From the sequence record DRR378314_2505: a stretch of 42,575 nt of DNA. One strand, 5' to 3'. Position numbers and translations under genes: made by a program. Shown here in pieces: positions 14,621 through 42,575 of this stretch. The notes beneath the pieces were generated by a model that worked only from the letters and a program-made list of their open reading frames with translations, did no database searches and was not told the origin of the DNA. Numbering within the stretch: the first letter of the stretch is position 1; each line of letters starts with the position of its first letter.

Positions 14621-14634
14621 TCCCGGGCGGTACT

Positions 14635-15330: not shown

Positions 15331-15341
15331 TGACTACCCTC

Positions 15342-18245: not shown

Positions 18246-18257
18246 GCGGCTGCCCTG

Positions 18258-24920: not shown

Positions 24921-27304
24921 CTCAAGGTGGTGACGAACTCGCCAATAACCCGCAGATCGCTGGCCGCGTCTTCGGTCAGCTCGATATCCCGGTAGCCGAA
25001 CAGGCGGCTCTCCGGCTTCAGCACGATGCGGGTGTGGTACCACTGGCCGTCGTCGTCCTCTGACTTCTCGCTGTGGTAGCGCTTTACGGTGTAGCGCCCA
25101 CCGGTGTCGGCGTCCTGGATGTCGCGATGGGATACCAGCACGATCTTGCCTTCACGGCTGCCGGCGGGCTTGGCGCGGAACAGGCACCAGGTGCCGCTGG
25201 GAATGCGCTGATTCATGGATTCGCCCACCACGCGGGTGACGAAATGGCCCGGCTCCGCCTTCAGCCAGTCCGGCCGCTGCATCCAGTCACAGTCTTCCAC
25301 CGCCTGCGGGTCGCTGAATTCGCCGGCGGCCACGGCCAGGTCATACACCGGCAGGGCGTTTTCGAACGGCACCACCTCCTGCGTATCCAGCAGCGGGTAC
25401 GGCAGGGCCTCGTAGTCCGCCGCCCGCATCACCGGGTTGGCGGAAGGCGTCTGTATCTGCTCCCGGAACCAGGCGTTGGTCTCCGGGTCGGTGCAGAACA
25501 CAAAGCAGCCTTTCATGCCCCGGGTCATCAGTGTGCGGTAGGTGTTCTTGATGATCTCGTCGGCTTCGCGCTTCGCCGTCTCCGGGTCCTCTTTATAGAG
25601 CTTCCGGATGCCGCGCACCGAACGGTCCATGGACGACCGCTTGCGGCCATCGGTCTGGATCTCGCCGTCGCGCACGATCAGGTCCGGGCCGATAATCACA
25701 CCCACGTAATCCAGTTCGAGACCCTGGATGGTGTGGATACAGCCGATCTGCTCCACCGAGTGTTCCGCCAGAGCCCACAGGCTGCCGTCCCGGGTCAGGT
25801 TCCACTGCGCGGCGAAATCATGCTCCGGCAGTTCGATATCCATGGCAACCGGGTCTTTCTTGCTCTTCCAGTCCCAGCAATAGCCGGCCACCATCCGTGC
25901 GCGGTTGTTGGCGTTGCGCGACACGATGGCCTGGCGCAGCGCCTGCGGCGAGTCCACCACTTGAATGTCGTAGTCCACGGACTCGAGGTCATCGTTGGCG
26001 GTATCGCGGATTTGCAGTAACTGATCGACGAACGCCAGATAACCGTCCGAGCCGCCGCAGCGGAACTGCGAGGCGAGCCCCAGCTCCGTAACCTCGGCGC
26101 CCAGACGTTCCGCCCAGCGCCGAATCTCCGCCCGCGAGCCCACGTCTTTCAGGGTGACGCGCTGCGCCTCGTCCACGAAGAACACCGACAGCCGGGCCGC
26201 CTGCATGATCTCCTTGATCTGGTGCTCGCCCTGGTTGCCGTAGAGGCCGCTTTTCTCATTCAGGCGGTGCGCCTCATCCACCAGCAACGCCCCGAAGCTG
26301 TCCGGCGCGGTATCCATAAACGACCCGGAGCCACGGAACATATTGCTGATGCGGCTCTTCTTGAACGAGCCGGTGAGCTGCGCCTCGTATACCGCCCGGG
26401 GCGCCGCGTTGCGTGAGACGTATTGGGCAGCCATATCGCGGCCGGTAAGGCGGGCCAGCAGGTTGATGGCCAGCACGGACTTTCCGGTGCCCGGGCCGCC
26501 CTCAACGATCAGCACCTGCCGCTTGCCCTGTTGCGCTCGGTGGGCCAGCTCCAGGGCGGTCTCGAACGCCACCTTCTGATCATCGATCATGACGAAGGCG
26601 TCGTTGCCCTGAAGCATGGTCAGCACCGCATCCGCAAGGCTGCGCGACGGGCGAATGCGACCATTCTCTATGCGGTAAAGCAGGTCCCGGTCATCGCCAT
26701 AGCGCACATGCTGCTTCAGAAAATCGGCCAGCCGCTCCACATCCCGGGAAATAAACACCGGCGCCTGGCTGGTGTGCGGCGCGTACACCGGATCGTTCAC
26801 CGCACTGCCGTCGTCCATATTGTGCAGGTAGGCGCAAGGCACCAGGCGAATAGACTCGGCGCGAACGGTTTCGTTGTAGTCTCTGATCAGGCTCGCGTAG
26901 GTCCACGCCTGATAAGACGGGTGGCTGGTCTCGCGCCAGCCGCCGCCCAGCGGCGTGCGGATAATGCCGTCCTTGTGCGACAACGGTTCGGCCTGCTGCC
27001 ACTGCTTCAGCTCGACGATGACAGCGGTCTCCTGCCGCTGTTCGTTGGCGCCACTGAGAATGAAGTCGATGCGCTTACTGGTCAGCGGGATGTGGTACTC
27101 CAGGGAAACGCCGGCGTCATCCGGAATCGCCTGATCCAGCATCAAGTTGGACATGAACTGCAGCGAGTGGCGCCAGGAATCCACCTCCTTGGCCGCCACC
27201 GAGCGTGACAGCCGACGCCGGAACTCGAGCAGAATCTTTTCATGAATGCGATTAAGGCGGACGTCTTCAATAAACGTCTTCTTCTTAGCGGTATAAACAA
27301 TCAT
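24917..27304 (-). CDS. Nuclease-like + DUF2075 (Schlafen-type SF1) helicase + C-terminal S24 peptidase fusion
   Basis: RIDFIL...IVELKQW (PD-(D/E)xK-like), GGPGTGKS, VDEAH, QFRC, HTIQGLE, YRTLMTRG; C-terminal VAAG, GESM, VKR. Confidence 0.85.
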   Translation of the reverse strand: MIVYTAKKKTFIEDVRLNRIHEKILLEFRRRLSRSVAAKEVDSWRHSLQFMSNLMLDQAIPDDAGVSLEYHIPLTSKRIDFILSGANEQRQETAVIVELKQWQQAEPLSHKDGIIRTPLGGGWRETSHPSYQAWTYASLIRDYNETVRAESIRLVPCAYLHNMDDGSAVNDPVYAPHTSQAPVFISRDVERLADFLKQHVRYGDDRDLLYRIENGRIRPSRSLADAVLTMLQGNDAFVMIDDQKVAFETALELAHRAQQGKRQVLIVEGGPGTGKSVLAINLLARLTGRDMAAQYVSRNAAPRAVYEAQLTGSFKKSRISNMFRGSGSFMDTAPDSFGALLVDEAHRLNEKSGLYGNQGEHQIKEIMQAARLSVFFVDEAQRVTLKDVGSRAEIRRWAERLGAEVTELGLASQFRCGGSDGYLAFVDQLLQIRDTANDDLESVDYDIQVVDSPQALRQAIVSRNANNRARMVAGYCWDWKSKKDPVAMDIELPEHDFAAQWNLTRDGSLWALAEHSVEQIGCIHTIQGLELDYVGVIIGPDLIVRDGEIQTDGRKRSSMDRSVRGIRKLYKEDPETAKREADEIIKNTYRTLMTRGMKGCFVFCTDPETNAWFREQIQTPSANPVMRAADYEALPYPLLDTQEVVPFENALPVYDLAVAAGEFSDPQAVEDCDWMQRPDWLKAEPGHFVTRVVGESMNQRIPSGTWCLFRAKPAGSREGKIVLVSHRDIQDADTGGRYTVKRYHSEKSEDDDGQWYHTRIVLKPESRLFGYRDIELTEDAASDLRVIGEFVTTLS

Positions 27305-28371: not shown

Positions 28372-29522
28372 CCAAGCTCACGGGGATGCTCCGCGACCAA
28401 ACTCTCCCGCGAAATCTCCCCAACCGCCCTGGCCCCAGTCAACGTCATCGCCACCTTCATCTCGCTGGCGATCAGGTCCAGCAGGTTGGCCACGCCCTGC
28501 TCGCCGGCGGCGGCGAGAGCGTAGACGAAGGGGCGGCCGAGCAGCACGCCGTCGGCGCCCAGGGCGAGCATGCGCACCACGTCCAGGCCGGAGCGGACGC
28601 CGGAATCCGCCAGGATCGTCAGGTCGCCCTGCACGGCGTCGGCGATGGCCGGCAGGGCCCGGGCCGAGGAGAGCACGCCATCGAGCTGGCGCCCGCCGTG
28701 GTTGGAGACCACGATGCCGTCCGCGCCGAACCGCACCGCCTCGCGGGCGTCCTCCGGATCGAGAATGCCCTTGAGCACCATGGCGCCCTGCCAATACTCC
28801 CGAATCCATTCCAGATCCCGCCAGCCGATGGACGGATCGAAGTTCTCGCCCAGCCAGCCGATGTAATCCTCCAGCTGGATGCGGTGGCCCAGATAGGCCG
28901 ACACATTGCCCAGATCGTGGGGCCGCCCGCGCAGGCCCACGTCCCACGCCCAGCGCGGGTGCGTCACCGCCTGCAGCACCCGCCGCCAGGCCGCGAACGG
29001 CCCGGACATCCCCGAATGCCGATCGCGATAGCGCGCCCCCGGCACCGGCATATCCACCGTGAACACCAGGGTCCGCACCCCCGCCGCCCAGGCCCGCTCC
29101 AGCGCGTTTTTCATGAAACCTCGGTCGCGCAGCACATACAGCTGAAACCACATCGGCCGCATCATCGCCGGCTGCACCTCCTCGATGGGACACACCGACA
29201 CCGACGACAACGTAAACGGCACGCCCCGCGACGCCGCCGCCCGCGCCGCCTGCACCTCGCCCCGCCGCGCGTACATCCCGGTGAGCCCCACCGGCGCCAG
29301 CGCCACCGGCAGGCTCACATCCTCCCCGAACCACCGCGCCGACAGATCCACCTCCCCCACCTCCTTCAACACCCGCTGCCGCAACGCCAGAGCGCGCAGA
29401 TCCGCCACATTGCGCGCCAGGGTGTGCTCGTCGTACGCGCCCCCGTCGATGTAGTGGAACAGGAACGGCGGCAGGCGGCGTTGGGCGGCGAGGCGGTAAT
29501 CGTGGGTGGAGGAGATGATCAT
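28368..29522 (-). CDS. lldD: FMN-dependent L-lactate dehydrogenase
   Basis: [46 protein letters not shown]. Confidence 0.92.
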
Positions 29523-29587
29523 GGTTGTCTCCTGGTGGGGTGGCGAACCGAGAAGCCCGAAGAGGAAGTATTCGAATTGCGTACGAA

Positions 29588-29818
29588 CTAAAGGCCCGCC
29601 TCACTGAACAATTGGGCAGCGGAGACATTCAACGCCCTGGCGATACGCAGGATGTTCGCCAGGGAGACGTTGCGCTCTCCTCGCTCCACCGCGCCGATAT
29701 AGGTGCGATGAATCCCAACCTCGGTGGCGAAGGCTTCCTGGGAAATACCGGCAGCCCGTCTCCGCTCCCGAATCACGGAACCCAGCTTTTTCTGTGCGTC
29801 ATCAATGTGAGTAGTCAT
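29588..29818 (-). CDS. XRE HTH protein of RM controller (C-protein) type
   Basis: SQEAFA...[22 protein letters not shown]-box directly upstream. Confidence 0.85.
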
Positions 29819-29837
29819 ATTTCAAATTGTTCTTATA

Positions 29838-29870
29838 GATGACTATAAATCTACACACTATGAGTAGCAT
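29838..29870 (-). promoter_or_regulatory. PvuII-type C-box (two operators with TGTA spacer)
   Basis: Minus strand ATGC-TACTCATAGTG-TGTA-GATTTATAGTC-ATC fits GACT-N3-AGTC-TGTA-GACT-N3-AGTC; ends 22 nt before the C gene ATG. Confidence 0.8.
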
Positions 29871-29928
29871 ATCCGGCCATCATATCCTATGATGACTTTA
29901 CGTATCATCGAAACTCATGGAGGGAATC

Positions 29929-30072
29929 ATGAGAAAGCGTAAGCCGAACATCGAAATCGGGCACTATCGTGGTAGCCGGTATTGGGGCGTTTGGGTTGAT
30001 TCGGAGCTTTTGGCTGTGGTGTGCTACCGAAAAGATGCTGAGGCGATAAAATCAGCGCTACTAAATGGTTGA
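29929..30072 (+). CDS. 47-aa hypothetical protein, missing from the ORF track
   Basis: GGAGGG RBS; MRKRKPNIEIGHYRGSRYWGVWVDSELLAVVCYRKDAEAIKSALLNG*. Confidence 0.6.
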   Translation: MRKRKPNIEIGHYRGSRYWGVWVDSELLAVVCYRKDAEAIKSALLNG

Positions 30073-30102: not shown

Positions 30103-33100
30103 GTGTCGATTAATGAAACCGACATTCGGCAGTGGGCGGATCGTCATGAATGCCGTAGAAGTCTGCCAATACTAGTTCGTCGTTTAATCAGGGAGACAGC
30201 CGGGTCCCTATCGGCTTTTCGGTTCCCCGGGAATGATGCCGTCGACTTAAGCGGCCTTGACGGTCAAGTTGAGAATGAGATCGCGACGACCTGGGTGCCT
30301 CGCGGGCGAAGCGTGTGGGAAATGGGGAGTAACCACGATCCTCGGGCCAAGGCAGAAGGCGACTATAAAAAGCGAACCGCAGAAACGCCATTAGAAGTGC
30401 GTCAGGCCACCAGCTTCATATTCGTCACCCCCAGGCGGTGGAATACAAAGGATGAGTGGCTAGAAATGCACTGCCAAGAAGCCTCTTGGGCGTCTGTAAA
30501 AGCATACGACGCAATAGATCTAGAAACTTGGCTTGAAGAAGCACCAGTTACCACTCGATGGCTGGAAGAACTGATCGGGGTTGCCCATCCGGGCTTGATG
30601 ACGCCTCACGAATGGTGGAAACAATGGTCAACAGCTTCGAATCCGGCCATCTCCATGAAGCTAGTTTCAACACGAAGGCATAACGAACAGCAAACACTAT
30701 TATCACTTTTACGAGATGGCGAAGAATTTCTGCCAATACAAGCCGATGATAAGCAAGAGGCAGTGGCGTTTGTAATAGCATCATTGATCGAGGCAGATGC
30801 ACTTGATCTCTTAGACCGGAGCTTAGTATTAACGTCCAACGCTGCCGAAATCCAATCATCGCCAGCTGGCTCAATAATTATTTCTGACGTGGTGGAAGGC
30901 AATGAGCCAAATTTTGGTGACAGGCGAAAAATCACAATCATAAAAACCTATCCAAAAGGGCGCTCAGATGTACGGCAAGCCATCCAGCTCTCACACGTAC
31001 CTTCTGAGATCTTCCGTATCGAGCTGGAAGCCATGGGGCTAAGTCGGGACGAGGCAGCAAGCTGGGCTTTAAAGACTGGGCATTCCGTTCCAGTCCTGAG
31101 ACGACAGCTTTCCAAGGATCCTGACGTACGAACACCAACTTGGGCACGAAACCGCGCATCTGCCAAAATGCTGCTCCCATTTGCATTGTCTGGTTCTTGG
31201 GTCGAACGCGAGAACACTGGCGACGAAACAGTTCTAGAGTTGCTTGGGGAGCTAGGGGATGGAGAGGTGGAACGAATTCGTGATCAGCTTCTCGCTTTAA
31301 ATGACGCCCCAGTTGCTCGTTACGGAAACATAAACATCGTAGTTTCACAACTTGATGCTTTGTTTGCAGTAGGCCCTTTCATTGGGCTAGATGACCTTGA
31401 CCGTTTTTTTCAACTGGTACCTGAACTACTAGGAGATCGAGACCCAGTTCTCGACCTTCCACAAGACCAATGGTGGATGGCCAGCGTTCTCGGTAAGACT
31501 AGGGATTACTCCAACGCGTTACTCTCAGGCCTTAGCGATGCACTTTGTATCCTTTCCATTCACGGAAGGGAGATCTGTGGAAATAGACTCTCTGCTGATC
31601 TAGCGCGCCGTTCGGAAAAAGTAGTCCGCTCTCTAATGAAGAATAACGACGAGGACCGTTGGCTCTCCATCCGCGGCCATCTGAGAGAGCTCGCCGAGGC
31701 ATCGCCGGGTGCATTTCTCGACTGTCTCGAGGAGGAGCTTGGCAGGTCAGAGCCAACTATCCGAGCTATAATGGGGACCACCACTGGAGCGATTGGCGGG
31801 GAATGCCTCCGAACGCATTTACTGTGGGCACTTGAGTCGCTGGCCTGGCACGCGGAGTATTTCAAACGTGTGTTGGAGATTGTTTATAAACTTCGGGATA
31901 TTGAAACTGAAGATAACTGGACAAACTCTCCGAAATCCACGGCTAGAGCGCTTTTTCTCCCATGGTTACCCGCTACATCCGTTAGCGTAACTGAAAGGAT
32001 GGTGATTTTACGGGAACTATCGAAAATACATAGAAGGCATGCTATTGACGTTTGTATTTCTCTACTTCCAGGAGCAGGCCCCGATTTTGCGTCTAGAACA
32101 GCAAGGCCACGTTGGCGAGCACTAGAAATTGAGGTAACAGAGCCTACAAACGCGGACGTAAAGTATGCAGCTGAGGAAGCAAGTCACCTACTCCTAGACT
32201 TGGCCCCATTCGATAAAGAAGATCTCAAACAACTGATCGAGGTCACAACACTACTGCACCCAGACGATTTAAGCCGGCTTGTAAATGAAGTTGAGCGTTG
32301 GTCGGCCAAGTCTGATGATGAAGAAAAAGCCGAGTTAAGGCACGATCTTCGTCGACGAGATGTTATGCGTGCATACCAAGAAAATGAAAAGAACCAAGCA
32401 TTGGCTACTGCGATCCATCAGATGGAGGATTTTTTAGAGCCAGCGGATCCTAGCTTACGGCATCGATGGCTATTTGGTAGCCACCCTGTCGAATGGCGCG
32501 CCTTGGCCGAAGCTGAAATCGAAGGTAACTTGTCTTGGCAAGAAAGGGCTGCCCTATTGGAGGAGCGGAGGCAGGAAGCAATCTCAGAGGTTCAAGAATA
32601 CCTCGGGGAAGAGGCTATACTTCCATTTGCTCTCAGCACGCAGCAACCCGACCTAGTCGCGGAAACCCTAGTCCCGCATAACTCTCCAGCTACAACTGCA
32701 GGAAAATGGGCCAGCATAGCGTTTCAGGAGAAAGTTAATGAAAAATCAACTGCATTTCTTCGCCAGATCTTATGGAACACAAACCGAGAAAGCCTAATTG
32801 ACATGGGCAATTTACTTACTCATGAAGGACTACTCAGTCGGGCAGATAGCAGGGAGCGCTTTGCACAGCTCCTTCCTGGGTGTCGAGAGGGATGGGAGGC
32901 TGCTGAGTCTTTGGGAGACGACATAGCCTCATCATTTTGGCGTTCGGTCTCCATCCGTCTCTGGAATGATACCGAGCCACAAGCAGTGTTGTATGTAGTA
33001 GAAAAACTTCTTGAAGTCCAGCGCCCACGGTCAGCGCTTTTGGCTTTACAATTTCAACCCGACCGGCTTCCGCCCGAGCAATGGTCCCGCATCCTTCAAG

Positions 33101-33894
33101 CTGTCGCTCGCGGGGAAGAGCCGCATGCCCCCCTGCCCATTTCTTATCATCTTGACGAAATATTCATGCTGCTAGACAAGGCGCAGGGAATTTCAAATCA
33201 ACATATTGCTCACTTGGAGCTGCCTTTTATTCCTCTATTGTGCAACCATGGTCATCGCAACCATCGAAGAACTCTTGCTATCCACCATGAGCTATCACGC
33301 GATCCTGAGCTCTTCGTTCAACTCCTTTGCTGGCACTATAAGCGCAGAGACGGGGCGTTTGAGCCCGAGCAGAAGGAATTATCAGATGATAGACGTGAAT
33401 TTCTAGCAAGCCTAGCGCACCACACACTCAAGGGTTGGAAGGAGCTACCCGGCTGCCAAGCCGATGGGGAAATCAACGAGCAGGAATTTACTTCCTGGGC
33501 GGATGAAGCGTTAAGACGTGCGTCCAGCATGGACCGTAGAGAGGCTGGCGAAACCCATTTCGCCGAATTACTGGCACACTTTGCCCGTCAGCATCCATGG
33601 GAAGACTGGCTGCCTGACTGTGTGTTGCGCTTCTTGGATAGACAGGGCAATACCAGCCTCCGGGAGAAGTTCGAGATCGGTGTTCATAATGCTCGTGGAG
33701 CAACAATACGAGGGCCATACGATGGCGGTGAGCAAGAACGGAACCTAGCCGGCCACTATCGTGATCTTGCGGCACGATATGGAAACTCGTATCCCCGGGT
33801 GTCCGCGATGCTTATATCGATCGCAGAGAGTTACGAGCAGGACGCTCGTCACCATGATGAAAAGGCTGCAATTGGCGAGCGCTGGCACCCTTGA
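30103..33894 (+). CDS. 1263-aa protein, putative N-terminal restriction-endonuclease-like domain plus long helical region; candidate defence protein
   Basis: Uninterrupted ORF, lower GC than host genes; GLDG...WEMG...DYKKRT...FIFVTPR pattern; GTG start after a G-rich RBS. Confidence 0.7.
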   Translation: MSINETDIRQWADRHECRRSLPILVRRLIRETAGSLSAFRFPGNDAVDLSGLDGQVENEIATTWVPRGRSVWEMGSNHDPRAKAEGDYKKRTAETPLEVRQATSFIFVTPRRWNTKDEWLEMHCQEASWASVKAYDAIDLETWLEEAPVTTRWLEELIGVAHPGLMTPHEWWKQWSTASNPAISMKLVSTRRHNEQQTLLSLLRDGEEFLPIQADDKQEAVAFVIASLIEADALDLLDRSLVLTSNAAEIQSSPAGSIIISDVVEGNEPNFGDRRKITIIKTYPKGRSDVRQAIQLSHVPSEIFRIELEAMGLSRDEAASWALKTGHSVPVLRRQLSKDPDVRTPTWARNRASAKMLLPFALSGSWVERENTGDETVLELLGELGDGEVERIRDQLLALNDAPVARYGNINIVVSQLDALFAVGPFIGLDDLDRFFQLVPELLGDRDPVLDLPQDQWWMASVLGKTRDYSNALLSGLSDALCILSIHGREICGNRLSADLARRSEKVVRSLMKNNDEDRWLSIRGHLRELAEASPGAFLDCLEEELGRSEPTIRAIMGTTTGAIGGECLRTHLLWALESLAWHAEYFKRVLEIVYKLRDIETEDNWTNSPKSTARALFLPWLPATSVSVTERMVILRELSKIHRRHAIDVCISLLPGAGPDFASRTARPRWRALEIEVTEPTNADVKYAAEEASHLLLDLAPFDKEDLKQLIEVTTLLHPDDLSRLVNEVERWSAKSDDEEKAELRHDLRRRDVMRAYQENEKNQALATAIHQMEDFLEPADPSLRHRWLFGSHPVEWRALAEAEIEGNLSWQERAALLEERRQEAISEVQEYLGEEAILPFALSTQQPDLVAETLVPHNSPATTAGKWASIAFQEKVNEKSTAFLRQILWNTNRESLIDMGNLLTHEGLLSRADSRERFAQLLPGCREGWEAAESLGDDIASSFWRSVSIRLWNDTEPQAVLYVVEKLLEVQRPRSALLALQFQPDRLPPEQWSRILQAVARGEEPHAPLPISYHLDEIFMLLDKAQGISNQHIAHLELPFIPLLCNHGHRNHRRTLAIHHELSRDPELFVQLLCWHYKRRDGAFEPEQKELSDDRREFLASLAHHTLKGWKELPGCQADGEINEQEFTSWADEALRRASSMDRREAGETHFAELLAHFARQHPWEDWLPDCVLRFLDRQGNTSLREKFEIGVHNARGATIRGPYDGGEQERNLAGHYRDLAARYGNSYPRVSAMLISIAESYEQDARHHDEKAAIGERWHP

Positions 33895-34140: not shown

Positions 34141-34929
34141 TTAAATCGCATCTGCAGCTTGCCATCCCTTGTGGGTTAGCTCGAAAATTTCGCCCTTCTC
34201 GCCGAGTCCCTTTATCAATCCGTACGCTACTAGTTCCCCTAAAGCATCATCATACAGCGCAAAATCACGAGAGCCTTCAGAGCCAAACGATTGATTGCCA
34301 GCATGAATAGTTCTATTGCCTATAGACTGGGACTTTAGGATTGTTCCTTTTTTGTTCTCCGAGGCCGCTTTCAAGATCTCGAAGGCTTGCCGAGAGAGAT
34401 TATATGCGGTCGGTTCTCCGACCGACACTTGACTTTGAAGTTTCTCAGAAAGCTGATCACGCTCCCTGCGCAAATTTTCGAGTTGAGCCGTCAACTTCTC
34501 CTTAGCTTCCTCATCCCCAAGTCCTGCCACTTCCTCGTCCCGCTTCGCCCTTTCAATGAGCTCCTTTTCCTTTACAGCAAAGAGGTTGGACCGCGAATTT
34601 TCAAGCTCTGTCTGCCGAATTGTCTTGTTGTGCTCTGCTTCGAGACGAAGGTTTTCAATTAGCCCAGCGGGTTTTCTTGAAATGAGCCCAAAAGCATACT
34701 GAATCCAATGCTTTGAGGCCGCCACAAAAGCACCGACTAGGAGCGGAAAAACCACCAATGTGTAGTGGCTGGTCACACCATCAAAAGCGGCGAGGCGTTC
34801 TTGAGGTGTTCCCCTAGTCATCACCAACAAGAATATGCCGCGCCAATTGAGAGCAAAGAGCGCAAGAGCCGCATACCCAAAATACGGAGTTTTGATTCTT
34901 GAATTGACCGCATCGATCACCTCCTTCAT
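34141..34929 (-). CDS. Hypothetical membrane protein (2 TM, coiled coil, C-terminal wHTH-like)
   Basis: Two N-terminal hydrophobic segments, E/K/R-rich heptads, ...LVAYGLI...FELTHKGW. Confidence 0.7.
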   Translation of the reverse strand: MKEVIDAVNSRIKTPYFGYAALALFALNWRGIFLLVMTRGTPQERLAAFDGVTSHYTLVVFPLLVGAFVAASKHWIQYAFGLISRKPAGLIENLRLEAEHNKTIRQTELENSRSNLFAVKEKELIERAKRDEEVAGLGDEEAKEKLTAQLENLRRERDQLSEKLQSQVSVGEPTAYNLSRQAFEILKAASENKKGTILKSQSIGNRTIHAGNQSFGSEGSRDFALYDDALGELVAYGLIKGLGEKGEIFELTHKGWQAADAI

Positions 34930-34987
34930 GGCCTTTCATTCCTCCTACCCGTCAATACGCTCTTGTGAATGCCAGAGCGCCAACCCA

Positions 34988-35190
34988 AATATGCAATAAA
35001 TACGCCGGCGCCGTATTTTTCTTGTTTGATGTCCCCTGACAAAAAATAAGACCAGAAAAAGAAGCCGCTGACAAACGTCCTCTCCTGATATCTTTGCTAA
35101 TCTTCTCTCCTCAAATTAAAAGGCCGCCAACGCCCAGGCGTCAAAGGCCTCTTAAGTAAGCCGTTACTAATTAGCCAAACCAAATAGATC
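34988..35190. repeat. Diverged copy B of the guaA-downstream ~200-bp element
   Basis: Collinear blocks shared with 42339-42548: CGCCGGCG, TCCCCTGAC, AAAATAA, ACCAGAAAA, AGCCGCT, ACAAAC, CCTGATATCTT, AAAAGGCCGCC, TTAAGTAAGCC, TTACTA, AGATC. Confidence 0.85.
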
Positions 35191-35550: not shown

Positions 35551-35847
35551 TTAATCCAGCAGCCTTTCCGGTGCATCCATGTACTCATGCAGCACACGAA
35601 CCACTAACACCTCCGCCTCGAGCACTCGGTAGAACACCGCGTGATGCTCAACCTGCAGTCGGCGATACCCGGGAAGAACATGGGCGTAGTCGGTCCCAAG
35701 CAAGGGGTGCTGAATCAGCGGCCTCATGCCCGCCTCCAGCTGATCAAGGTAGCCATCCGCCTGATCCGCACCCCACTCTTCGCAGGTATACACCCAGATG
35801 TCGATGAGGTCGGGTTCCGCCTTTGGCGTAAGGCTCAGCGTGCGCAC
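35551..35847 (-). CDS. parE: ParE (RelE/ParE) toxin
   Basis: DLIDIWVYT.EEWGADQADGY, GYRR, HAVFYR, VVRVLH. Confidence 0.9.
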   Translation of the reverse strand: MRTLSLTPKAEPDLIDIWVYTCEEWGADQADGYLDQLEAGMRPLIQHPLLGTDYAHVLPGYRRLQVEHHAVFYRVLEAEVLVVRVLHEYMDAPERLLD

Positions 35848-36101
35848 TACTCCGGCGCCTTCACCCGCTTACGGCCAGCCGCCTTGATCGCCGCCATATC
35901 GACTGGCTTGGCCTCGCCGCTTGCTTCACCCTCAACCAGGGCCTGCCTGAGCGTGGCAAGCCGTTCCTGGGCTTGCTGGTCCTGCCGGATGAGATGGCGG
36001 ATATACTCACTGTCGTTGCCGAACTGGCCGTCTTCGATCCGGCTTTTTACCCAGCCGTCCTGTTGTTCGGTGAGGGTGATGGTCTTCCGGTGCATGCTCA
36101 T
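35847..36101 (-). CDS. parD: ParD antitoxin (RHH)
   Basis: KTITLT, GQFGNDSEYIRHLIR, LRQALVEGEASG. Confidence 0.9.
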   Translation of the reverse strand: MSMHRKTITLTEQQDGWVKSRIEDGQFGNDSEYIRHLIRQDQQAQERLATLRQALVEGEASGEAKPVDMAAIKAAGRKRVKAPE

Positions 36102-36126
36102 AATGGGTACTCCTGAGCCCCAAACA

Positions 36127-36143
36127 GTATGACAATATCATAC
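36127..36143. promoter_or_regulatory. Probable parDE operator
   Basis: Inverted repeat GTATGA-N5-TCATAC about 25 bp upstream of parD. Confidence 0.55.
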
Positions 36144-36758
36144 CAAGCTTTTGCGCCGGATCAATTCCGTCTACCAACGGGCGGCAGCAGACACTGTGTT
36201 TGTTCAGGCACCCTCAAAAGCCTTTGAGCCCGTCATCATCGGTGACGGTCTCACGGCCTTTTGATCCTGCCTATGCGCAGCATTGATTGCGCATAGGATT
36301 GATCGTTGCGCATAGGCGTAAAAGCCTTTGGAATATTCCGTCTGGCAGGCTGTTGTCGGCCAGTGCATGAGTATCATCGGCGTCCGCATTTCGAGCGGAA
36401 AGGCGTCATAACGGCATCATCCATTGGCGGCAACGCACCCCTGGAGTGTGGGTAGAGCGCTTGTCGTAAAGAGGCGGAATTGCATTTTCGACCTCAAGTC
36501 CGTACCAAGAAGAATCAATGCGACGCGAATCGGAAAGAAGAGCAGCTTCATGGTGACCTGCTGTTGGTACTAATCCAGACCTGATCTGCTGGCATGCAAC
36601 AGTTTTGGAATGGAGCACACCTTGTGTAGCGGCATGCATTTTCCGTACTTCTCGATGGCTATCTTCTGGAGTTAGCTCGAAGTACCCCGTATGACTTCCA
36701 GCATCACATGCCCGCAAGTACCAAGTTTAAATATCGGCTGTTCAGTATTTATTATAAG

Positions 36759-36867
36759 GCATGACGCCTTGCCTACAGGCCGGATAGAGCAGAGTAAGCT
36801 TTTGATAGTTTGCGCAGCTAAACCACAATCTTGCGCGTAGCTGGTTCCGAGCACAGCAATTTTAAGT
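36759..36867 (-). repeat. Degenerate attC-like site 3
   Basis: Starts 3 nt after the stop: ACTTAAA...GCTGTGCTCGGA...internal hairpin TTGTGGTTT/AAACTATCAA...AAGGC-GTCATGC; both core triplets altered. Confidence 0.45.
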
Positions 36868-36870
36868 TCT

Positions 36871-37842
36871 CTAATCGCTATTCTTTCTAACGATTTCGGC
36901 TAACAAAGCATCTATTTGGGATATATAGTTTACTTGATTAAAATTTGGCAACGACTCTCTTTTTCGGATATATTGGTGTAATAGACCATCTGAAATTTTT
37001 CTACAGCCTTTCTCAAGATGATTGAACGCTTCTTTTAAAGATTTTCCAGGATAACTAGCGGAAACCTCGCCAAATGTTGAAAACCCTAGAGAAGGAGGAA
37101 CATGATCCAGAATCACCCTCAATAGAGCACCTATCGAAAAATAGTTTCCATTTTCGTAAGCCGAATTTATTTCTCTACATATTTGAACCAACCTAGAGAA
37201 ATCAAAGTTCACAGACTCGATACGTTCCAGGTCTTTTATCCGAGATTTGTCAATGTAACTAATAGTGGTTCTGGACTCTGAAGTTTCTTCTTTTCCTATA
37301 TTTCCAACGATAGAATCTGTCCAGATCATCCCGTCCTCAGGATATTCAGAAGGCTCCCTTATTCGGTGAATAGTATCTTTGAAGGCTTTAGATCTAATTA
37401 TCGATTCTGAAGGCTGAACCCAGGCGCCGTCTGCTTCGGTCAATGCTGTAGTATAGCTGCCAAATATGCTCGATTGGACCATGTAACCTAATGATTTAAC
37501 AACATCACCTTTTGGCAACTCAAGGCGTTTGGCCAAATCATCGACAGATATTTTATGCTCTGGATTCTCAATATAGAAGTTACGAAGAAATTGAAATATA
37601 AACTCACATCTTAAAAGCAATAAATTTGCTTCTTTAGATTCACTTTCTAACTCTAGGAGCGCAGGCAAGCATACGTAGTATTTTTGATCCCTCCTATCAA
37701 CATAACGCTTTGATTCCAATTCATCCAATAGATCTAACTTATCGTGATTTTTAGCTCTGTACTGGATCGCATTAACCCCTTTTGAGCCAGCCACGCTAGC
37801 TTCAAAAAGATCTACCAAAGATTTTTTTAATTGCTCTTGCAT
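36871..37842 (-). CDS. Hypothetical protein, wHTH-like N-terminus + HEPN/DUF4145-like C-terminus
   Basis: Very AT-rich; ISVDDLAKRLELPKGDVVKSL helix-turn-helix; EINSAY..GNY...ALLRVILD...RKISDGLLH. Confidence 0.65.
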   Translation of the reverse strand: MQEQLKKSLVDLFEASVAGSKGVNAIQYRAKNHDKLDLLDELESKRYVDRRDQKYYVCLPALLELESESKEANLLLLRCEFIFQFLRNFYIENPEHKISVDDLAKRLELPKGDVVKSLGYMVQSSIFGSYTTALTEADGAWVQPSESIIRSKAFKDTIHRIREPSEYPEDGMIWTDSIVGNIGKEETSESRTTISYIDKSRIKDLERIESVNFDFSRLVQICREINSAYENGNYFSIGALLRVILDHVPPSLGFSTFGEVSASYPGKSLKEAFNHLEKGCRKISDGLLHQYIRKRESLPNFNQVNYISQIDALLAEIVRKNSD

Positions 37843-37865
37843 TAATCAGTACTCGACCTAGTTTC

Positions 37866-37928
37866 GCCTGATGCTTGAACTCTGGCCGCCGGCCAACGTC
37901 CGGCGGCCGCTCGAACAACTTGTTGGAT
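37866..37928 (-). repeat. Degenerate attC-like site 2
   Basis: R'' ATCCAAC, 5-nt spacer, GTTCGAGC, 9-bp stem GGCCGCCGG/CCGGCGGCC, then TCAAGC-ATCAGGC (decayed R'). Confidence 0.55.
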
Positions 37929-37993
37929 AGCACCTCTCGGATCTTCGGAGGCAATAGGTTCGCGTTCACTCCAACTTACTCGCAGTTGAAGTA

Positions 37994-39850
37994 CTACGGC
38001 CGCATGGAAACCGGCAAGAAGCCATACCGTCCCGCAGAGCTCCTCGAGAAGTGGACGTGGTTGCACGACGCTTGCACATCGGCGGGAGGAGCCACGTTCT
38101 CGAAGACGACCACCTGGCCAAGCGCACTCGACGAGCAGAGGTTCCGATAGAAGGCATCCTTCACCGAGGTGGCGACCTCACCATCGTCGTCGACGTCGGC
38201 CTCCTTGTATGGGTTCAACGGAGTATCCAGGACGACGAAGCCAGGGTGGCCCTTGTTCGCCCCGAGTGCCTCTTGCATAAGTCCGATCACGTATCCGGCG
38301 CACATGACCGCACGCACGCCCTTGCCATGACTCGTCCGCCTCCGGCCATTTACAACTAGATCAGCGCTTTTCTCGTCAAATGCCACTGTAATGTCGTCAG
38401 CCACTCTCCATGCGATGAGGAGCGCCTTGATACGCGAGCATACGTCGGACATGGTGTTCGCTGTGAGCTTGATGAACTCCAACTTCTCCCCCTTGTCGCG
38501 CGTGGCATCCAGGTCGAGCATTTGGCTCTTCAGCGAGTCGATCTGGGCGCGCAGTTGCTCCACCCTGACGAACGCCCCGTAGCTCCCCTGGATCGCGCGG
38601 AGTTCATTGGCCGTGGCTCGGACTTTCGCGGCAAGGGCTCCCTCAATCTCTTCCGAGATCCCCTGGATCGCTGCATCGACCTCTCTAAGGCTCGCCGCCA
38701 AGACACGCTGCTCGGTGGACAGCTGGTCAGCTGCAACGCGAAGTTCCACTCGGAGTTGCTGGACCTTGGCCGCTTCCGCCAAAGCTGCCCGGAGCGTAGA
38801 CTCGGGCTCGTGCGCATCAGCATGCCGCTGATGTTCTGGTCTAGCGCCACAGTAGTCGCACGATCTGTCGCCGTACATCTGCAGGAGATAAGAAGACTCT
38901 CCCATGGCCTCAAGCCGAAGCAGATCAGACTCGTAGTGCGCGTCGAGCAACGAAGCACGTGCGAGCATCCCGTCGAGCTCACCTAACCGTCCGTTTTGCT
39001 CGCGTTGCTCGTTCACGAGCTCTCCTCGCCTCGACTCAGCGGCGCGCAGATCAGCCAAGGCCGTGCTCGACAGCTCGCCCAGCTCACACAGCTTGGCTTC
39101 AAGTTGGGACAGCACCTCTGGCGTCGCATCTATGTTCTCAAGGAGCTCGTCAAGCGCGGCTTGATCACGTTCGAGCAGATCCTTGATCGCCTCCTTCCTT
39201 CCGGCCAACCGGCCCGCGGATGTCTTCGGATCTTCTGGCTGCACGATCCCGGAGTCATCAACGCCCGTCAGCAACATCCGAATCGTACTTGCGGCGGCCG
39301 TGTTGCCAGTGTTCTGGGAACCGTAGAGGGGAGAGCGCTTCGCAATGATTCGCCCTTCATCGACGAGCAGGGCCTTGGATAGGACCCTGAAGCTGATCTT
39401 CTGAGTCTTCCCGCTGTCGTTCTTGCGGACTCGCCTGCCATCAAGGCCACACAGGCCAAGCAAGAAGCCAGAGACGGACTCCTTGGCGTTGGTGGTCTCA
39501 CCCAGTACATTCCACTCTTCATCGGCTTCGAGTGCATCATCAATCCGCCCGCGAAAGAGTCCGATCTTCCCACCAACGAGCGCACGCTTCAGGGTGTAGA
39601 ACTGGCCGTCCGCCGTTTGGATACAGAGATAGGCGACATCGTACAGTCGCGCTTGCGGGATCTCCTCGGGAGGCGTGCCAGCCCCCATCACGAAGTCGAT
39701 ACAGCTCAGCGCGTACGACTTTCCTGTGTCCGACGCCCCATCAATGACGTTGAGCCCCGACGCGAAAACGAGACTTCCGGGCACCTGACCAGGGCCACAG
39801 AGACGAAGCTCCCGAAGCTCGAACCCGCGTCGAGCGCTCCCGTTCGTCAT
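37994..39850 (-). CDS. SMC/Rad50-like ABC ATPase of ABC-3C/Lamassu system (LmuB-like)
   Basis: GLNVIDGASDTGKS Walker A, coiled coils with central CDYC hook, HGKG signature, VVLDTP Walker B. Confidence 0.85.
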   Translation of the reverse strand: MTNGSARRGFELRELRLCGPGQVPGSLVFASGLNVIDGASDTGKSYALSCIDFVMGAGTPPEEIPQARLYDVAYLCIQTADGQFYTLKRALVGGKIGLFRGRIDDALEADEEWNVLGETTNAKESVSGFLLGLCGLDGRRVRKNDSGKTQKISFRVLSKALLVDEGRIIAKRSPLYGSQNTGNTAAASTIRMLLTGVDDSGIVQPEDPKTSAGRLAGRKEAIKDLLERDQAALDELLENIDATPEVLSQLEAKLCELGELSSTALADLRAAESRRGELVNEQREQNGRLGELDGMLARASLLDAHYESDLLRLEAMGESSYLLQMYGDRSCDYCGARPEHQRHADAHEPESTLRAALAEAAKVQQLRVELRVAADQLSTEQRVLAASLREVDAAIQGISEEIEGALAAKVRATANELRAIQGSYGAFVRVEQLRAQIDSLKSQMLDLDATRDKGEKLEFIKLTANTMSDVCSRIKALLIAWRVADDITVAFDEKSADLVVNGRRRTSHGKGVRAVMCAGYVIGLMQEALGANKGHPGFVVLDTPLNPYKEADVDDDGEVATSVKDAFYRNLCSSSALGQVVVFENVAPPADVQASCNHVHFSRSSAGRYGFLPVSMRP

Positions 39851-40347
39851 GGCGTCCTCCCCGCCCCACGATACTCGGCGAACTGCCCACCCCATTGGTC
39901 GAGCTCGGTACTGACGTATCGGGTGATCTCACTGGTCTCCAGCTGCCCGAAGCTCACCGCGATCCAGCTGGCGCGGTTCCGCAGGGCTTCGACATACCTG
40001 CTGCGCAGCGTGTCCAGGAAGCAGCCGGCCCGATCCGTCGCGCCGTAACTGAAACCATTCGCGTCCACCGTCACTGAGACAAGACCACGCCTGGCGTACA
40101 AAGCGAGGCCAGGTTCCAGCACGGCACGCCGCACGAGAACCTCCGCTCCGCGTTGTGGCACAGCAGGATGGAGGCTCTCGGGACCTCCGTCCACGTCGGC
40201 CGAGTGGACCAGCAGGTAGTCGAGCAGAACGAGCCGCTGAAGATCGTGGTGGTGACGGTCAAGCTCGACGAGGACACACAGCGAGCGCAGCCCAAGCTCG
40301 ACTGGCGAGTTAAACACCCACGATGTTGTCGCGTCCGGCGTACCCAT
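39847..40347 (-). CDS. ABC-3C middle component (LmuC-like)
   Basis: FNSPVELGLR...LQRLVLLDYLLVHSAD...SLHP; translational coupling on both sides (TGATG, ATGA). Confidence 0.8.
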   Translation of the reverse strand: MGTPDATTSWVFNSPVELGLRSLCVLVELDRHHHDLQRLVLLDYLLVHSADVDGGPESLHPAVPQRGAEVLVRRAVLEPGLALYARRGLVSVTVDANGFSYGATDRAGCFLDTLRSRYVEALRNRASWIAVSFGQLETSEITRYVSTELDQWGGQFAEYRGAGRTP

Positions 40348-41420
40348 CACTGAACCCACTTGAGTCGAGCGTTGTCGGCGAGCTGGTGGCAGATGCCAGC
40401 CTTGTCTTTGACCCCGAGCACCTGTCGCAGGGCGTTGTTCGTCGGGTCAAGCTGCTGCGCTACTCCCGTCGCGGCCTTAACCCGTTGAAACCCATCGGCG
40501 TGGCTAATGTCCTCCACGGTGTCGATGACTGCATCGAAGAACTCCTCCTGAAGATCTTCAAATTGCCCAGGGGGAAGGGTGTCGCGGGAGAAATTACGAA
40601 GTGATTCCGCATGAAAGAATCGCTCGCGGCTCCGCAGCAAATGCCGATGGAGAGCCTCGTGCGCGGCCAAGCTCGCGACGCTCAGGGCCACGCCGGTGTG
40701 ATCGGAGTACGCCTCGAGGAGTCGACCGATGTATAGGCTCTCGAACTTTTCCTCGTCGATGTGCGGGACTTTGGCTGGCGGGCGAGGCGGTAGGCCGCCT
40801 GGAAATCGAGCGGCATGCCAGCGCGTCAACGCATGTTGCTCGATGATATCCATCGGCGGGACGTAGCTGACGATGCTGAAGTCGAAGCTCTCGACGAAGT
40901 TCAGGAGCTCGCCGGTCAGCGGAACTTTCTTCGTGGAGGTGATGTGCTCCTCGCACTTTCTCGCCCAGTCCTTGATGAGCCGCGCGCGGAGCTCCTCCGG
41001 CTCCTTGAAAAGCAGCGACAGACTGTTCCCCGCCCCCTGGGGAGCCACGAAATAGTACTCGGTTGGGGCCGAAAACGCCTTCTCGTAAACGTAGTAGCAG
41101 AGCTTCCCCAGCTCGAGGACAACCTGGTTCGGCTGCAGCGGGTCCTTATAGTGCTTGCACTGGTAGTTGTGCCACTCATCGTCGGAGACAAATGCCACAA
41201 CGTCGCGGCCGAGGTCGCCCGCTCCGCCACAGCGCTCAACTCGTTGGTACCTGCTCTTCAGGCTGTGGGCCCATTCCAGAGCGAAGTCCTCCCACTGGCC
41301 AGGGGAAAAAATGCGCAAGAGGTCGATGGCGGGCACAATCGTGCTACTCGCGGGCGTTGGCACCACGGTGTCTACTGTGGGCTCCTTCAGCGGCTGCGTC
41401 GTTGCCTTCAAAACGCTCAT
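40347..41420 (-). CDS. Mrr-like nuclease effector with ABC-3C C-terminal domain (LmuA-like)
   Basis: WEDF...GGAGDLGRDV...YQCKHY nuclease motif; C-terminal RERFFHAESL...GICHQLAD...LKW. Confidence 0.82.
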   Translation of the reverse strand: MSVLKATTQPLKEPTVDTVVPTPASSTIVPAIDLLRIFSPGQWEDFALEWAHSLKSRYQRVERCGGAGDLGRDVVAFVSDDEWHNYQCKHYKDPLQPNQVVLELGKLCYYVYEKAFSAPTEYYFVAPQGAGNSLSLLFKEPEELRARLIKDWARKCEEHITSTKKVPLTGELLNFVESFDFSIVSYVPPMDIIEQHALTRWHAARFPGGLPPRPPAKVPHIDEEKFESLYIGRLLEAYSDHTGVALSVASLAAHEALHRHLLRSRERFFHAESLRNFSRDTLPPGQFEDLQEEFFDAVIDTVEDISHADGFQRVKAATGVAQQLDPTNNALRQVLGVKDKAGICHQLADNARLKWVQ

Positions 41421-41456
41421 AATCGGAGTCCTCGCTCTTTCCGCCCACGCTCGGCT

Positions 41457-41534
41457 GTCCAACGCAGAGCGCACCGGTGGCCTTTGCAGAGCGAAGCGGC
41501 GTAATGGACATCCGTATGACGCGAACTGTCAGAC
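41457..41534 (-). repeat. attC-like site 1 (78 bp), AAC changed to GAC
   Basis: GTCTGAC-N5-GCG(T)CATA-CGG(A)TGTCC...GGCCACCG-GTGCGC-N5-GTTGGAC: R''/L''/L'/R' geometry with two extrahelical bases, 2 nt after a stop codon. Confidence 0.75.
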
Positions 41535-41536
41535 AT

Positions 41537-42295
41537 TTACACCCCGACTCGATTCCTTGTGGCAGCTGAAAACCCCAAATTGGTGAGATAAATCGGAAAC
41601 TCTGATTTGATAGCTTCGTGGCACCTATTCACTAAAAATTCAACATCTTCAACAGACTTCTTGGCAGACGTTTCACGTATTAGAAGAGGTGATATTTTTG
41701 GCCTATCACAGTTGTGAATACAGTCATGTCTACGCTGAAAAATCATATCGTATCGTTCTTTGACTTTATCCAATGCATCTTTTCGAGCCTTACCTTTCTG
41801 AGAGGGATTTAACTTTCGATAGTCTGTCGCGGCAATGCCAAACATTCTCTGTTTCGATTCACGGTGGGTAATCCATGGCTCAATAGAATCGGCTACCAGT
41901 AATTTTCGGCCTCTCCTAAAAAAATGGTTGAAAAGCTGCTGTATTTTTCCAAGCGAGAGCACATTTTCTTCTTCTATGAGCTCTCTAGCTGCCATTCGCC
42001 ATCGCCACCCACCATTCGCCTGGCGAAGCAAAGCCGTTACCGGAAGTTTTAAATTATTTAACCTGTCTGGCATTTCTATGCCAGGTTCAATTTCCTTTGC
42101 TTGAATGGCCTTGGCCACCAAATCTGCATACGCGTCGGAAAAATAAGCATCACACGCACCAACCCCCATCATCCAACTAGCACGGAGAATATCATCTTTG
42201 ACCATGCCTTCAGCTTGCAACTCAGCATGACCAAGTAGACCTCGAGCACGGGCAATATCTTCGGTAAAATGGCTCATTGCGGTGTCAAGAAGCAC
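41537..42295 (-). CDS. HEPN-like putative RNase
   Basis: DILRASWMMGVGACDAYFSD N-terminal helix and RHDCIH (Rx4H); GTG start after GGAAGGAG; AT-rich. Confidence 0.7.
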   Translation of the reverse strand: MLLDTAMSHFTEDIARARGLLGHAELQAEGMVKDDILRASWMMGVGACDAYFSDAYADLVAKAIQAKEIEPGIEMPDRLNNLKLPVTALLRQANGGWRWRMAARELIEEENVLSLGKIQQLFNHFFRRGRKLLVADSIEPWITHRESKQRMFGIAATDYRKLNPSQKGKARKDALDKVKERYDMIFQRRHDCIHNCDRPKISPLLIRETSAKKSVEDVEFLVNRCHEAIKSEFPIYLTNLGFSAATRNRVGV

Positions 42296-42310
42296 TTGCT
42301 CTCCTTCCCT

Positions 42311-42327
42311 GTCTAACAAATTTTAGG
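42311..42327 (-). other. attI-like / cassette 5' core site
   Basis: CCTAAAA-TTT-GTTAGAC directly before the RBS; resembles class 1 attI CCTAAAACAAAGTTRRRY, one base shorter. Confidence 0.5.
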
Positions 42328-42338
42328 ACGCCGGCTCG

Positions 42339-42548
42339 AATATCCAATGAACCCGCCGGCGTCACATCCCTTTTCTTCATTTCCCCTGACGCAAAATAAA
42401 ACCAGAAAACGCAGCCGCTTACAAACTCTACCGCAAGCAGTCCCCTGATATCTTGACCAACCCGCGTCCCAAAAACGCAAAAAGGCCGCCGACGCTCCCG
42501 CGCCGGCGGCCTTTTAAGTAAGCCCTTACTACCAGCCTAAATCAGATC
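42339..42548. repeat. Copy A of the ~200-bp element abutting the guaA stop
   Basis: Collinear with 34988-35190; similarity ends at the guaA stop codon. Confidence 0.85.
42480..42515 (-). terminator. guaA terminator (bidirectional)
   Basis: AAAAGGCCGCCG...CGGCGGCCTTTT. Confidence 0.8.
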
Positions 42549-42575
42549 ATTCCCACTCAATCGTAGCCGGCGGCT
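42547..42575 (-). CDS. guaA: GMP synthase, 3' end only
   Basis: Translates PPATIEWE*, the conserved GuaA C-terminus. Confidence 0.92.

Follow-up and report, generated by a model that had tools for sequence, protein, structure and literature searches.

Gene content of the array beside guaA

The DNA examined here is a stretch of 42,575 nt from sequence record DRR378314_2505 (hereafter the window; all coordinates refer to its full length), which was found to carry next to guaA, at one of its ends, a compact array of genes with a complete Lamassu defence operon set between sites resembling those of an integron. A first reading of the sequence alone (the original prediction) had proposed that this array is an integron-like row of three defence cassettes, which lacks an integron integrase gene (intI) and has altered cores in its recombination sites (attC). 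The analysis below indicates that two of these units are very probably integron cassettes, left behind in the decaying remnant of a chromosomal integron.

Read along the minus strand, the locus opens with the 3' end of guaA (42547-42575; the translation ends in ...PPATIEWE and the stop codon lies at 42547-42549), which is cut by the end of the window. The family PF00958 identifies guaA in G002-G004, three of the four genomes used for comparison (G001-G004). Behind the gene follow a terminator hairpin, recognised from its fold as an inverted repeat with a 16-pair stem and a subsequent T-run (42480-42515), and an orphan attachment-site (attI) region, which has neither intI nor a LexA box (42311-42458). 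The gap between guaA and the array measures 227 nt and holds no open reading frame (ORF). Cassette 1 (41463-42316) extends from the TT of the attI core to the G of the R' box of attC1 and contains one gene (41537-42292), and attC1 itself (41454-41537) was delimited with a covariance model. It is followed by a Lamassu cassette of 3541 nt (37922-41462), the boundaries of which were set by homology, by the remnant of a second site, attC2 (37866-37928), recognised from the likeness of its left half to an attC in another locus, and by gene 3 (36871-37842), an ORF of 323 amino acids which begins right after the attC2 remnant. The interval beyond it (36756-36870), named attC3 in the original prediction, is indistinguishable from chance.

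The four 7-mers on which the original prediction was built lie exactly where it had placed them, namely, on the minus strand, GTTAGAC at 42317-42311 (attI core), GTCTGAC at 41534-41528 (R'' of attC1), GTTGGAC at 41463-41457 (R' of attC1) and ATCCAAC at 37928-37922 (R'' at the end of the Lamassu cassette). All five ORFs of the array were confirmed to lie on the minus strand, and the base composition does change sharply from unit to unit, with a G+C content of 0.457 in cassette 1, 0.608 in the Lamassu unit and 0.387 in gene 3 (host reference 0.645, taken from window 1-28700, the region common to the nearest genome, G001). The 7-mer coincidences are weak by themselves, since the expected number of matches to any given 7-mer, one mismatch allowed, is 0.16-0.20 per 117-150 positions, which is to say per intergenic region. 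No Rfam family matched any of the sites, the only match near the array being the guaA terminator region (22.6 bits vs. a gathering score of 70), and a simple repeat search gave no repeated attC-like family inside the region.

The three-gene block consists of lmuA (40347-41420), lmuC (39847-40359) and lmuB (37994-39895), each identified by PADLOC over nearly the whole of its profile: LmuA by PDLC03852 (8.8e-114, profile positions 9-334 of 336), LmuC by PDLC03871 (1.9e-48, 9-155 of 156) and LmuB by PDLC03863 (2.4e-156, 3-609 of 610). The ORF of lmuA spans 40347-41474, with ATG at 41420 as the likelier start. Pfam added the ABC-3C domains CTD6 (PF20282) in LmuA and MC2 (PF20288) in LmuC, and the N-terminal part of LmuA is weakly similar to Mrr_cat (E 0.034). 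By its profile matches the block is thus a complete Lamassu (ABC-3C) system with the co-directional order LmuA-LmuC-LmuB, and the label given to it in the original prediction holds for all three components at full length.

The gene of cassette 1 occupies an ORF at 41537-42319, of which the likelier start is a GTG at 42292 behind the ribosome-binding site GGAAGGAGAG, giving a protein of 251 amino acids. This protein had no match in Pfam (even at E<=10), NCBIfam or PADLOC. It belongs to a family of 1238 proteins (E<=1e-10), in which the motif QRRHDCIHNCDR, with R188 and H193 inside it, is invariant among 24 aligned members. Ten of these 24 match PF18735 (HEPN_RiboL-PSP; best E 2.1e-5), and one database names a member of the family "RiboL-PSP-HEPN domain-containing protein". 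The HEPN label that had been proposed for this gene is therefore tentative and drawn from its homologues, the window protein itself giving no match.

Gene 3 had been labelled a wHTH-HEPN gene, which remains a guess; the matches are all sub-threshold. Its N-terminal part matches MarR_2 at E 0.0012, below the cut-off, and among 27 relatives four match HTH_IclR, three MarR_2 and two Csx1_HEPN, again below the cut-offs. The protein has 64 unnamed homologues, the closest at 88% and 72% identity, and its C-terminal domain has conserved RxLLDH and D..H..R residues. No similarity between the gene-1 and gene-3 families was found with hhalign (probability 1%), and profile searches of both families against PDB sequences gave nothing meaningful.

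The attI region and the attC sites

The nearest compared genome, G001, is 98% identical to window 1-18248, and within the array region it has only 57 bases in common with the window (42314-42370), which form a hairpin with a conserved loop. A 20-mer from this loop is present in 31 loci of the genome_contigs collection (L021-L050 and L062), with one to four copies per genome, and all but one of these loci are titled Alcanivorax/Alloalcanivorax or unclassified gammaproteobacterial/Pseudomonadota metagenome-assembled genomes (MAGs). Thirty non-identical copies align over ~108 nt, and the element reaches ~190 nt upstream in total length. The conservation breaks off at CCTAATACCTGTTA, directly after its closing CCTGTTA, and from there on each locus has its own sequence, its own ribosome-binding site and a different gene. 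In three loci (L027, L029 and L045) a divergent gene for a 324-amino-acid protein lies directly upstream of the element, and the protein of L027 scores 412 bits on the integron integrase model TIGR02249 (cut-off 265). Only the first 143-147 residues of the integrase remain in L031 and L035. As judged by eye, several further loci retain just the first ~10 integrase codons.

Since the conserved element abuts a TIGR02249 intI in relatives and its conservation stops at the crossover, it can be taken as the attI that the family's chromosomal integrons use. Homology to it begins, in the window, ~90 nt past the guaA terminator and takes in neither the LexA-box-like palindrome nor intI. In locus L062, a MAG of Alcanivoracaceae type, the attI together with its cassette is 82.7% identical to the window from 42426 to 41461. 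By sequence comparison, the GTTAGAC at 42311-42317 is accordingly the crossover core of a genuine attI, with integrase-adjacent homologues, a crossover at G/TT (the slash marking the junction), and a first cassette and attC sites downstream.

For the attC sites, scans with strict patterns gave too few sites and were followed by a constrained-fold scan and then by a covariance model (R1), which was built from 21 natural attCs of 63-90 nt from 11 attI loci, with the window and L062 excluded. RNAalifold placed 20 pairs on these 21 sites, 16 of them with compensatory changes. Across the 31 attI loci R1 found 64 sites at E<=0.01, and every one of the 64 lies downstream of an attI and on its strand; at least one attC is present in 28 of the 31 loci, and two of the three siteless loci offer less than 265 nt downstream. 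The model also recognises strong sites in unrelated taxa (70.1 bits for a locus of Halovibrio, 51-56 bits for contigs from marine metagenomes), and in three non-integron Lamassu loci it returned nothing at E<=5.

The natural arrays also allowed a rule used in the original prediction to be assessed, namely that the 5' core of an integrated cassette complements the R'' of its own attC. Between the attI core and the first R'', complementarity is exact in 19 of 26 loci and off by one mismatch in six; between an R' and the R'' that comes next, it is exact in 28 of 36 comparisons. The two junctions of the window each depart from the rule by one mismatch. Of the 64 natural attCs, 60 have AAC and one has GAC as the triplet of R'', and 61 have GTT in R'.

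When the whole window was scanned with R1 on both strands and with the filters off, the only significant match was attC1 (29.3 bits, E 6.9e-5), the next matches (10.9 and 10.5 bits) being located elsewhere. The site claimed at 41457-41534 thus stands above background, as the sole R1 match in the window to rise out of the noise. L062 carries an ortholog of cassette 1 at its attI, and the likeness ends at the GTT of R' (window 41461). The attC of L062 is intact (47.5 bits), with an R'' of GTCTAAC, the exact complement of its own 5' GTTAGAC, and an R' of GTTAGGC. As the ortholog has GTCTAAC, the conserved AAC has undergone A>G in the GTCTGAC of the window (G at 41530), so that the triplet loss that had been predicted for attC1 has its ancestral state before us in L062.

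A manual comparison of the two sites gave ~9 further substitutions in attC1, among which are several stem changes without compensation. The bottom strand of the L062 site folds as DNA into a single extended hairpin in which the R box is paired (-19.0 kcal/mol, z -3.96), while that of attC1 has lost the canonical hairpin (-15.2 kcal/mol, z -1.59). The site is thus still recognisable yet degraded, given the change from AAC to GAC and the fact that the canonical fold is no longer the structure of minimum energy. Cassette 1 may be said to own an attC on the grounds of the R1 match and of the homology to the intact site of L062.

Homologues of gene 1 elsewhere are consistent with its being a cassette gene, as the original prediction would have it. 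From 123 loci with relatives of the 251-amino-acid protein, 80 were kept for a scan with R1; 11 of them yielded a total of 22 sites at E<=1, without exception on the strand of the gene. An attC stands beside the gene in nine of the 80 (L062, L065, L072, L079, L081, L082, L093, L101 and L130), and these represent several phyla by title.

The limits of the Lamassu cassette were drawn from close relatives of LmuB (82-91% amino acid identity), present in four loci from genomes and five from metagenomes. In Halomonas fontilapidosi (L058) the DNA is 92.3% identical over window 41465 to 37922, from GC-GTTGGAC to ATCCAAC; the match to L149 runs from 41463 to 37922, and that to L150 begins at 41465. 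The 5' boundary is therefore common to all three within 2 nt, and an unrelated attC ends exactly there in L058 (32.2 bits) and in L150 (51.2 bits). The unit of L058 opens with GTTGGGC and closes with GCCCAAC, which are perfect complements. In the window, the 5' boundary and R'' are present, GTTGGAC and ATCCAAC differ from complementarity by one mismatch, and the cassette's own attC survives as a left half only.

That attC is intact in L148 (2489-2553), where it follows lmuB as a single long hairpin with GAC in R'' and ends in GTTAGGA. The left half of attC2 (R'' and L'') is identical to it at 20 of 26 positions, up to 37903. The right half has decayed and has no L' pairing and no GTT; the R1 score of the interval searched alone is 6.4 bits, below the noise of the window, and the bottom strand folds into a central G+C hairpin only. 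The attC2 of the original prediction was thus correct in its R'' (ATCCAAC) and its left half, both homologous to L148, but not as a full site. Its proposal that ATCAGGC is the decayed R' is no more than compatible with one global alignment. The corresponding attC has collapsed to R'' plus ~6 nt in L058 (~6965-7000) and in L149 (~4965-4990). Directly behind the collapsed site of L058 begins the next gene, the first residues of which look DUF2971-like. L152 repeats the arrangement of the window from lmuB to past gene 3 at 94.7% identity.

Four other Lamassu loci (L059, L060, L061 and L151) share the coding region only (~41408-41420 to 37985-38009, 83.6-85.8% DNA identity) and have no attC. These are G+C-rich MAGs, and as read by eye they have in common a 3' flank which differs from that of the cassette copies. 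The two kinds of copy could serve for the study of how cassettes gain an attC. A Xer-like recombinase near the homologue in L059 was considered as an IntI and rejected, as it scores 177.9 bits on TIGR02249 against the cut-off of 265.

Integrase loss, mobility and alternative explanations

The absence of intI that had been claimed for the interval between guaA and the array extends to the entire window: the interval contains neither an ORF nor any IntI-like sequence, and a tblastn search with the 324-amino-acid IntI of L027 gave no match in the 42.5 kb. With TIGR02249, the compared genome G004 was found to have an intact integrase (415.7 bits), which adjoins one of its two attI copies, and the matches in G003 and G002 cover only model positions 3-133 and 3-87. 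In G001, a 90%-complete MAG, only Xer-level matches were obtained. Among the attI loci, 21 of 31 offer 1 kb or more of upstream sequence and gave no IntI match, three have a full and two a truncated intI. Counted by eye, the upstream contexts fall into ~8 or more groups (guaA-type, ubiD, the 10-codon intI stub and others), each across several species.

The combined evidence points to the decaying remnant of a chromosomal integron of Alcanivorax/Alloalcanivorax type, with an attI that has no intI, two cassettes, drifted sites and a Lamassu operon which has become fixed, and this reading is given a probability of roughly 85%. Cassette 1 joins attI at G/TTAGAC and the Lamassu cassette joins attC1 at G/TTGGAC. 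An IntI recombinase would first have inserted the Lamassu cassette at attI, and attI x attC recombination would later have set cassette 1 ahead of it. Loss of the integrase in the lineage would have followed, leaving the sites to drift, with attC1 gaining the AAC>GAC change in R'' along with uncompensated changes in its stem, and attC2 losing its L'/R' half. Following the decay of both sites and the loss of the integrase, the Lamassu operon would no longer be excisable as a cassette and would form a fixed chromosomal defence locus. On these grounds the core of the original prediction, an integron-type array next to guaA without intI and with altered cores, is well founded, resting now on the attI homology, the R1 match of attC1, the L062 ortholog and Lamassu boundaries common to four other loci. 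The prediction had also held that the cassettes were captured at a guaA hotspot and then immobilised. The array does lie beside guaA; capture, however, would have taken place at the orphan attI and not at guaA itself, and immobilisation is what the state of the sites suggests.

Expression of the cassettes would probably come from a promoter-like element inside the attI module, to judge by the conserved pair TTGTAA-17 nt-TTTTAT, which the window shares with 18 of 31 other loci (19 of 32 in all). The attI hairpin (42327-42363, minus strand) sits downstream of this pair. It has 9+2 = 11 base pairs and an invariant loop, and 97.3% of the cells are paired in the alignment. Two of its pairs are compensatory, and eight sequences have U-G on the sense strand at one pair (A-C on the other strand); this pattern hints at a structure in a sense-strand transcript. 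Rfam gave no match to the hairpin, and no description of it was seen in the literature.

Several observations weigh against the interpretation preferred here. R1 is a home-made model with a shortened calibration, so that its E-values are rough, and GAC occurs in the R'' of one natural attC of relatives, which bears on how far the AAC>GAC change affects recombination. The search for intI covered the window and G001-G004, of which G001 is 90% complete, and the source genome may encode one elsewhere. Contigs from public runs X13 and X16 that match cassette 1 at 90% or more part from it precisely at 41461, the G/TT of attC1, which implies that cassette 1 stands beside other cassettes in close relatives and has been recently mobile in the population. 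Regarding expression, a strong guaA terminator precedes cassette 1, a consensus promoter scan of the minus strand at 42320-42575 found no sigma-70-like promoter, and the TTGTAA/TTTTAT pair agrees with the consensus at only 8 of 12 positions; contigs of the RNA-library run X9 over all 30 bins were not counted as evidence of transcription, as DNA carry-over is possible. Finally, gene 3 and the interval 36100-36870 are left unaccounted for by this reading.

The last of these points leads to the alternative that fares best, according to which all three units are former cassettes, gene 3 and its attC3 included, the latter having decayed beyond recognition. Gene 3 is co-oriented with the other genes, differs from the host in G+C content (0.387 vs. 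0.645) and lies right behind the attC2 remnant; its marks of a cassette are those of composition and position only. The best local R1 alignment in 36100-36880 runs from just past the stop codon of gene 3 to GGCGTCATGC, one change from an end of the type GGCGTTATGC, and in a global alignment with L148 the sequence CATCAGG stands opposite CGTTAGG at the end of attC2. However, the R1 score of the attC3 interval is 2.2 bits (E 5.6 within the 781 nt of 36100-36880) and its bottom strand folds worse than shuffled sequences (z +1.21), so that the claim of a third site finds no support. No close relative of gene 3 was found in genome_contigs, and an attC match of at least 12 bits stood beside the gene in none of three loci with distant homologues obtained by profile search, nor can a 7-mer complement rule be established for the unit. 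The third cassette of the original prediction thus finds no backing either in an attC or in the context of its homologues. Gene 3 may be a former cassette, though as a description of the whole array this alternative is doubtful.

A second alternative is that the array is an active satellite, on which an IntI encoded elsewhere acts in trans at the orphan attI, with attC1 tolerating its altered core. Precedents for such an arrangement are found in G004, in which an intact intI (298046) coexists with attI copies at 297817 and 538760, attC arrays included, and in the MAGs XB_MAG879 and CI.40, in which an intact intI occurs alongside integrase-less attI copies with attC arrays. The break at the G/TT of attC1 in X13 and X16 and the scope of the intI search count in its favour too. 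Against it, no intact intI was found in any of the three nearest genomes, attC1 no longer has the canonical fold, attC2 is without an R', and the arrangement of the array was the same in all four runs examined, as it is in L152. Half or more of the sampled words of the stretch are contained in 16 public runs from at least 12 studies, and none of the contigs from the four runs joins across a cassette, a result which does not by itself rule out excision, as contigs drop rare variants. On this balance a satellite still in action is improbable, and the remnant described above is preferred.

The same copies of attI without intI would agree with a wider proposal for the Alcanivoracaceae, that of a distributed integron in which a ~190-nt attI module, made up of the promoter-like pair, the covarying hairpin (in the predicted 5' leader) and the G/TT core, would have been copied without intI to many sites (beside guaA, beside ubiD and, as judged by eye, at several further places), all of them served in trans by one IntI where it still exists. 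This is put forward tentatively and is thought rather unlikely. If true, it would mean that a genome has several first-position, expressed capture slots for cassettes, many of them with defence genes; the window would then show one of these slots, frozen once IntI had disappeared from the lineage. The distance from attI to guaA is 12.5 kb in G003, in which attI is intact, and 54 kb in G002, and the two are unlinked in G004. Upstream of the A. mobilis attI in L034 (~3050-3110), a decayed copy of the guaA 3' end together with the post-guaA sequence of the window was noticed by eye. The genuine guaA of that genome is 54 kb away, and the pattern resembles a direct repeat left by the insertion of an island at the guaA 3' end.

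That the locus has no integron origin at all, being a generic defence island assembled from other mobile elements at the 3' end of guaA with attC-like motifs by chance, can be dismissed as extremely improbable: 28.7-42.3 kb is indeed absent from the matching contig of the nearest genome, an insertion-sequence-like repeat and a ParDE pair lie inside it, and the 7-mer matches alone are expected at the rate given above (0.16-0.2 per intergenic region), but the homology of attI to integrase-adjacent sites, the R1 match of attC1, the orthologous cassette with its intact attC in L062 and the Lamassu boundaries at loci with strong attCs all contradict it.

Neighbouring features and comparison with known systems

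Downstream of gene 3 lie 770 nt without a recognisable gene, followed on the minus strand by an adjacent and intact toxin-antitoxin-type ParDE pair (35551-36101), with parD at 35847-36101 (PF03693, 4.7e-13) and parE at 35551-35847 (PF05016, 1.9e-19). This flank, the pair included, is shared at 91% identity by the array region of Alloalcanivorax mobilis, and a search with R1 found no attC flanking it. Further along, blastn identified a second, degenerate module of terminator and attI-like sequence (34980-35170, minus strand), then an ORF of 262 amino acids (34141-34929) for which no family match was found. Ahead of this second module stands a decayed gene similar to the one found upstream of attI in L041.

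In the remainder of the window, the stretch 28391-30056 has counterparts of 94-96% identity in both G002 and G003, as well as additional partial ones in G002, and the G001 contig ends inside it; its two long overlapping ORFs had no match in Pfam or PADLOC, and it is possibly an unclassified insertion element. An ORF of 1263 amino acids on the plus strand (30103-33894) had no Pfam or NCBIfam match and a weak PADLOC match to PD-Lambda-4_A (E 1.2e-5 over ~115 residues). On the minus strand, 24917-27304 encodes a protein of 795 amino acids that combines a helicase domain of Schlafen group 3 (1.3e-106) with an S24 peptidase at its C-terminus and matches PDC-S41 and AbiO in PADLOC; it is likely to be a further defence gene and belongs to the part of the window that G001 has in common. 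Window 1-39 has ~45 matches in G001 (87-97% identity, both strands) and has the appearance of a REP-like dispersed repeat.

Decaying integrons of this general kind are already known, and what is new here is the example. Clusters of attC sites lacking an integron integrase have been termed CALINs, and very degenerate ones have been proposed as a step toward gene fixation (Cury et al., 2016, PMC4889954); a single attC without integrase is termed a SALIN (10.1101/2024.07.02.601686). The window resembles such elements in having cassettes with attC and no nearby intI, with degenerate sites as in the proposal of Cury et al., and it lacks the intI beside the array (TIGR02249) that marks a complete integron. 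Because only one attC passes R1, a home-made model, the locus is a SALIN and not a CALIN by the two-site rule. It differs in keeping a recognisable attI. This feature is normally unassessed in CALINs, because IntegronFinder cannot search for the attI of unknown integron classes. The locus shows that elements described as attC without integrase can retain a functional-looking attI that usually goes unseen, attI sites not being searchable across integron classes.

A close parallel is offered by the chromosomal integrons of Xanthomonas beside ilvD (Gillings et al., 2005, as summarised in 10.1101/2025.06.18.660453). Most lineages there have an integrase inactivated by truncation or deletion and arrays that are frozen, and CALINs are found at further conserved loci. 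Both cases have an ancestral chromosomal integron at a housekeeping gene and a decayed integrase. The present case differs in belonging to the Alcanivoracaceae, in its anchors (guaA, ubiD and others) and in that many loci keep attI with no trace of intI. Among the matches listed in the literature search there was no paper on an Alcanivorax integron (titles and abstract openings) and none on orphan attI sites (titles); Lamassu cassettes or integrons of Alcanivorax may nonetheless be recorded in the supplementary tables of the integron-defence papers, which lay outside this scope. In Alcanivorax/Alloalcanivorax, the large number of attI modules without integrase goes beyond the literature seen and is the most original side-observation of this work.

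The locus provides a natural example of the last stages of an integron, in which defence cassettes become fixed chromosomal genes, and the stages of decay are visible across its relatives, from an intact attC through a point-mutated R'' and a half attC to a collapse to R'' plus a few bases. Sedentary chromosomal integrons have been described as biobanks of anti-phage defence (10.1101/2024.07.02.601686), and the BRiCs of mobile integrons include brc128 (brc128AB), a two-gene Lamassu-like system (10.1101/2024.07.02.601719), which is a precedent for a Lamassu-type system in a cassette. The Lamassu (ABC-3C) system of the window has all three components at full length, with an N-terminal effector domain in LmuA that is weakly Mrr_cat-like. 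It differs from brc128 in being a full three-gene LmuA-LmuC-LmuB operon of 3.54 kb, in occurring in several marine arrays and in having its own attC decayed or collapsed in three of four copies, and it is known here from its sequence. With it, the list of systems passed between genera as integron cassettes (here Halomonas, Alcanivorax and marine metagenomes) gains a complete Lamassu operon.

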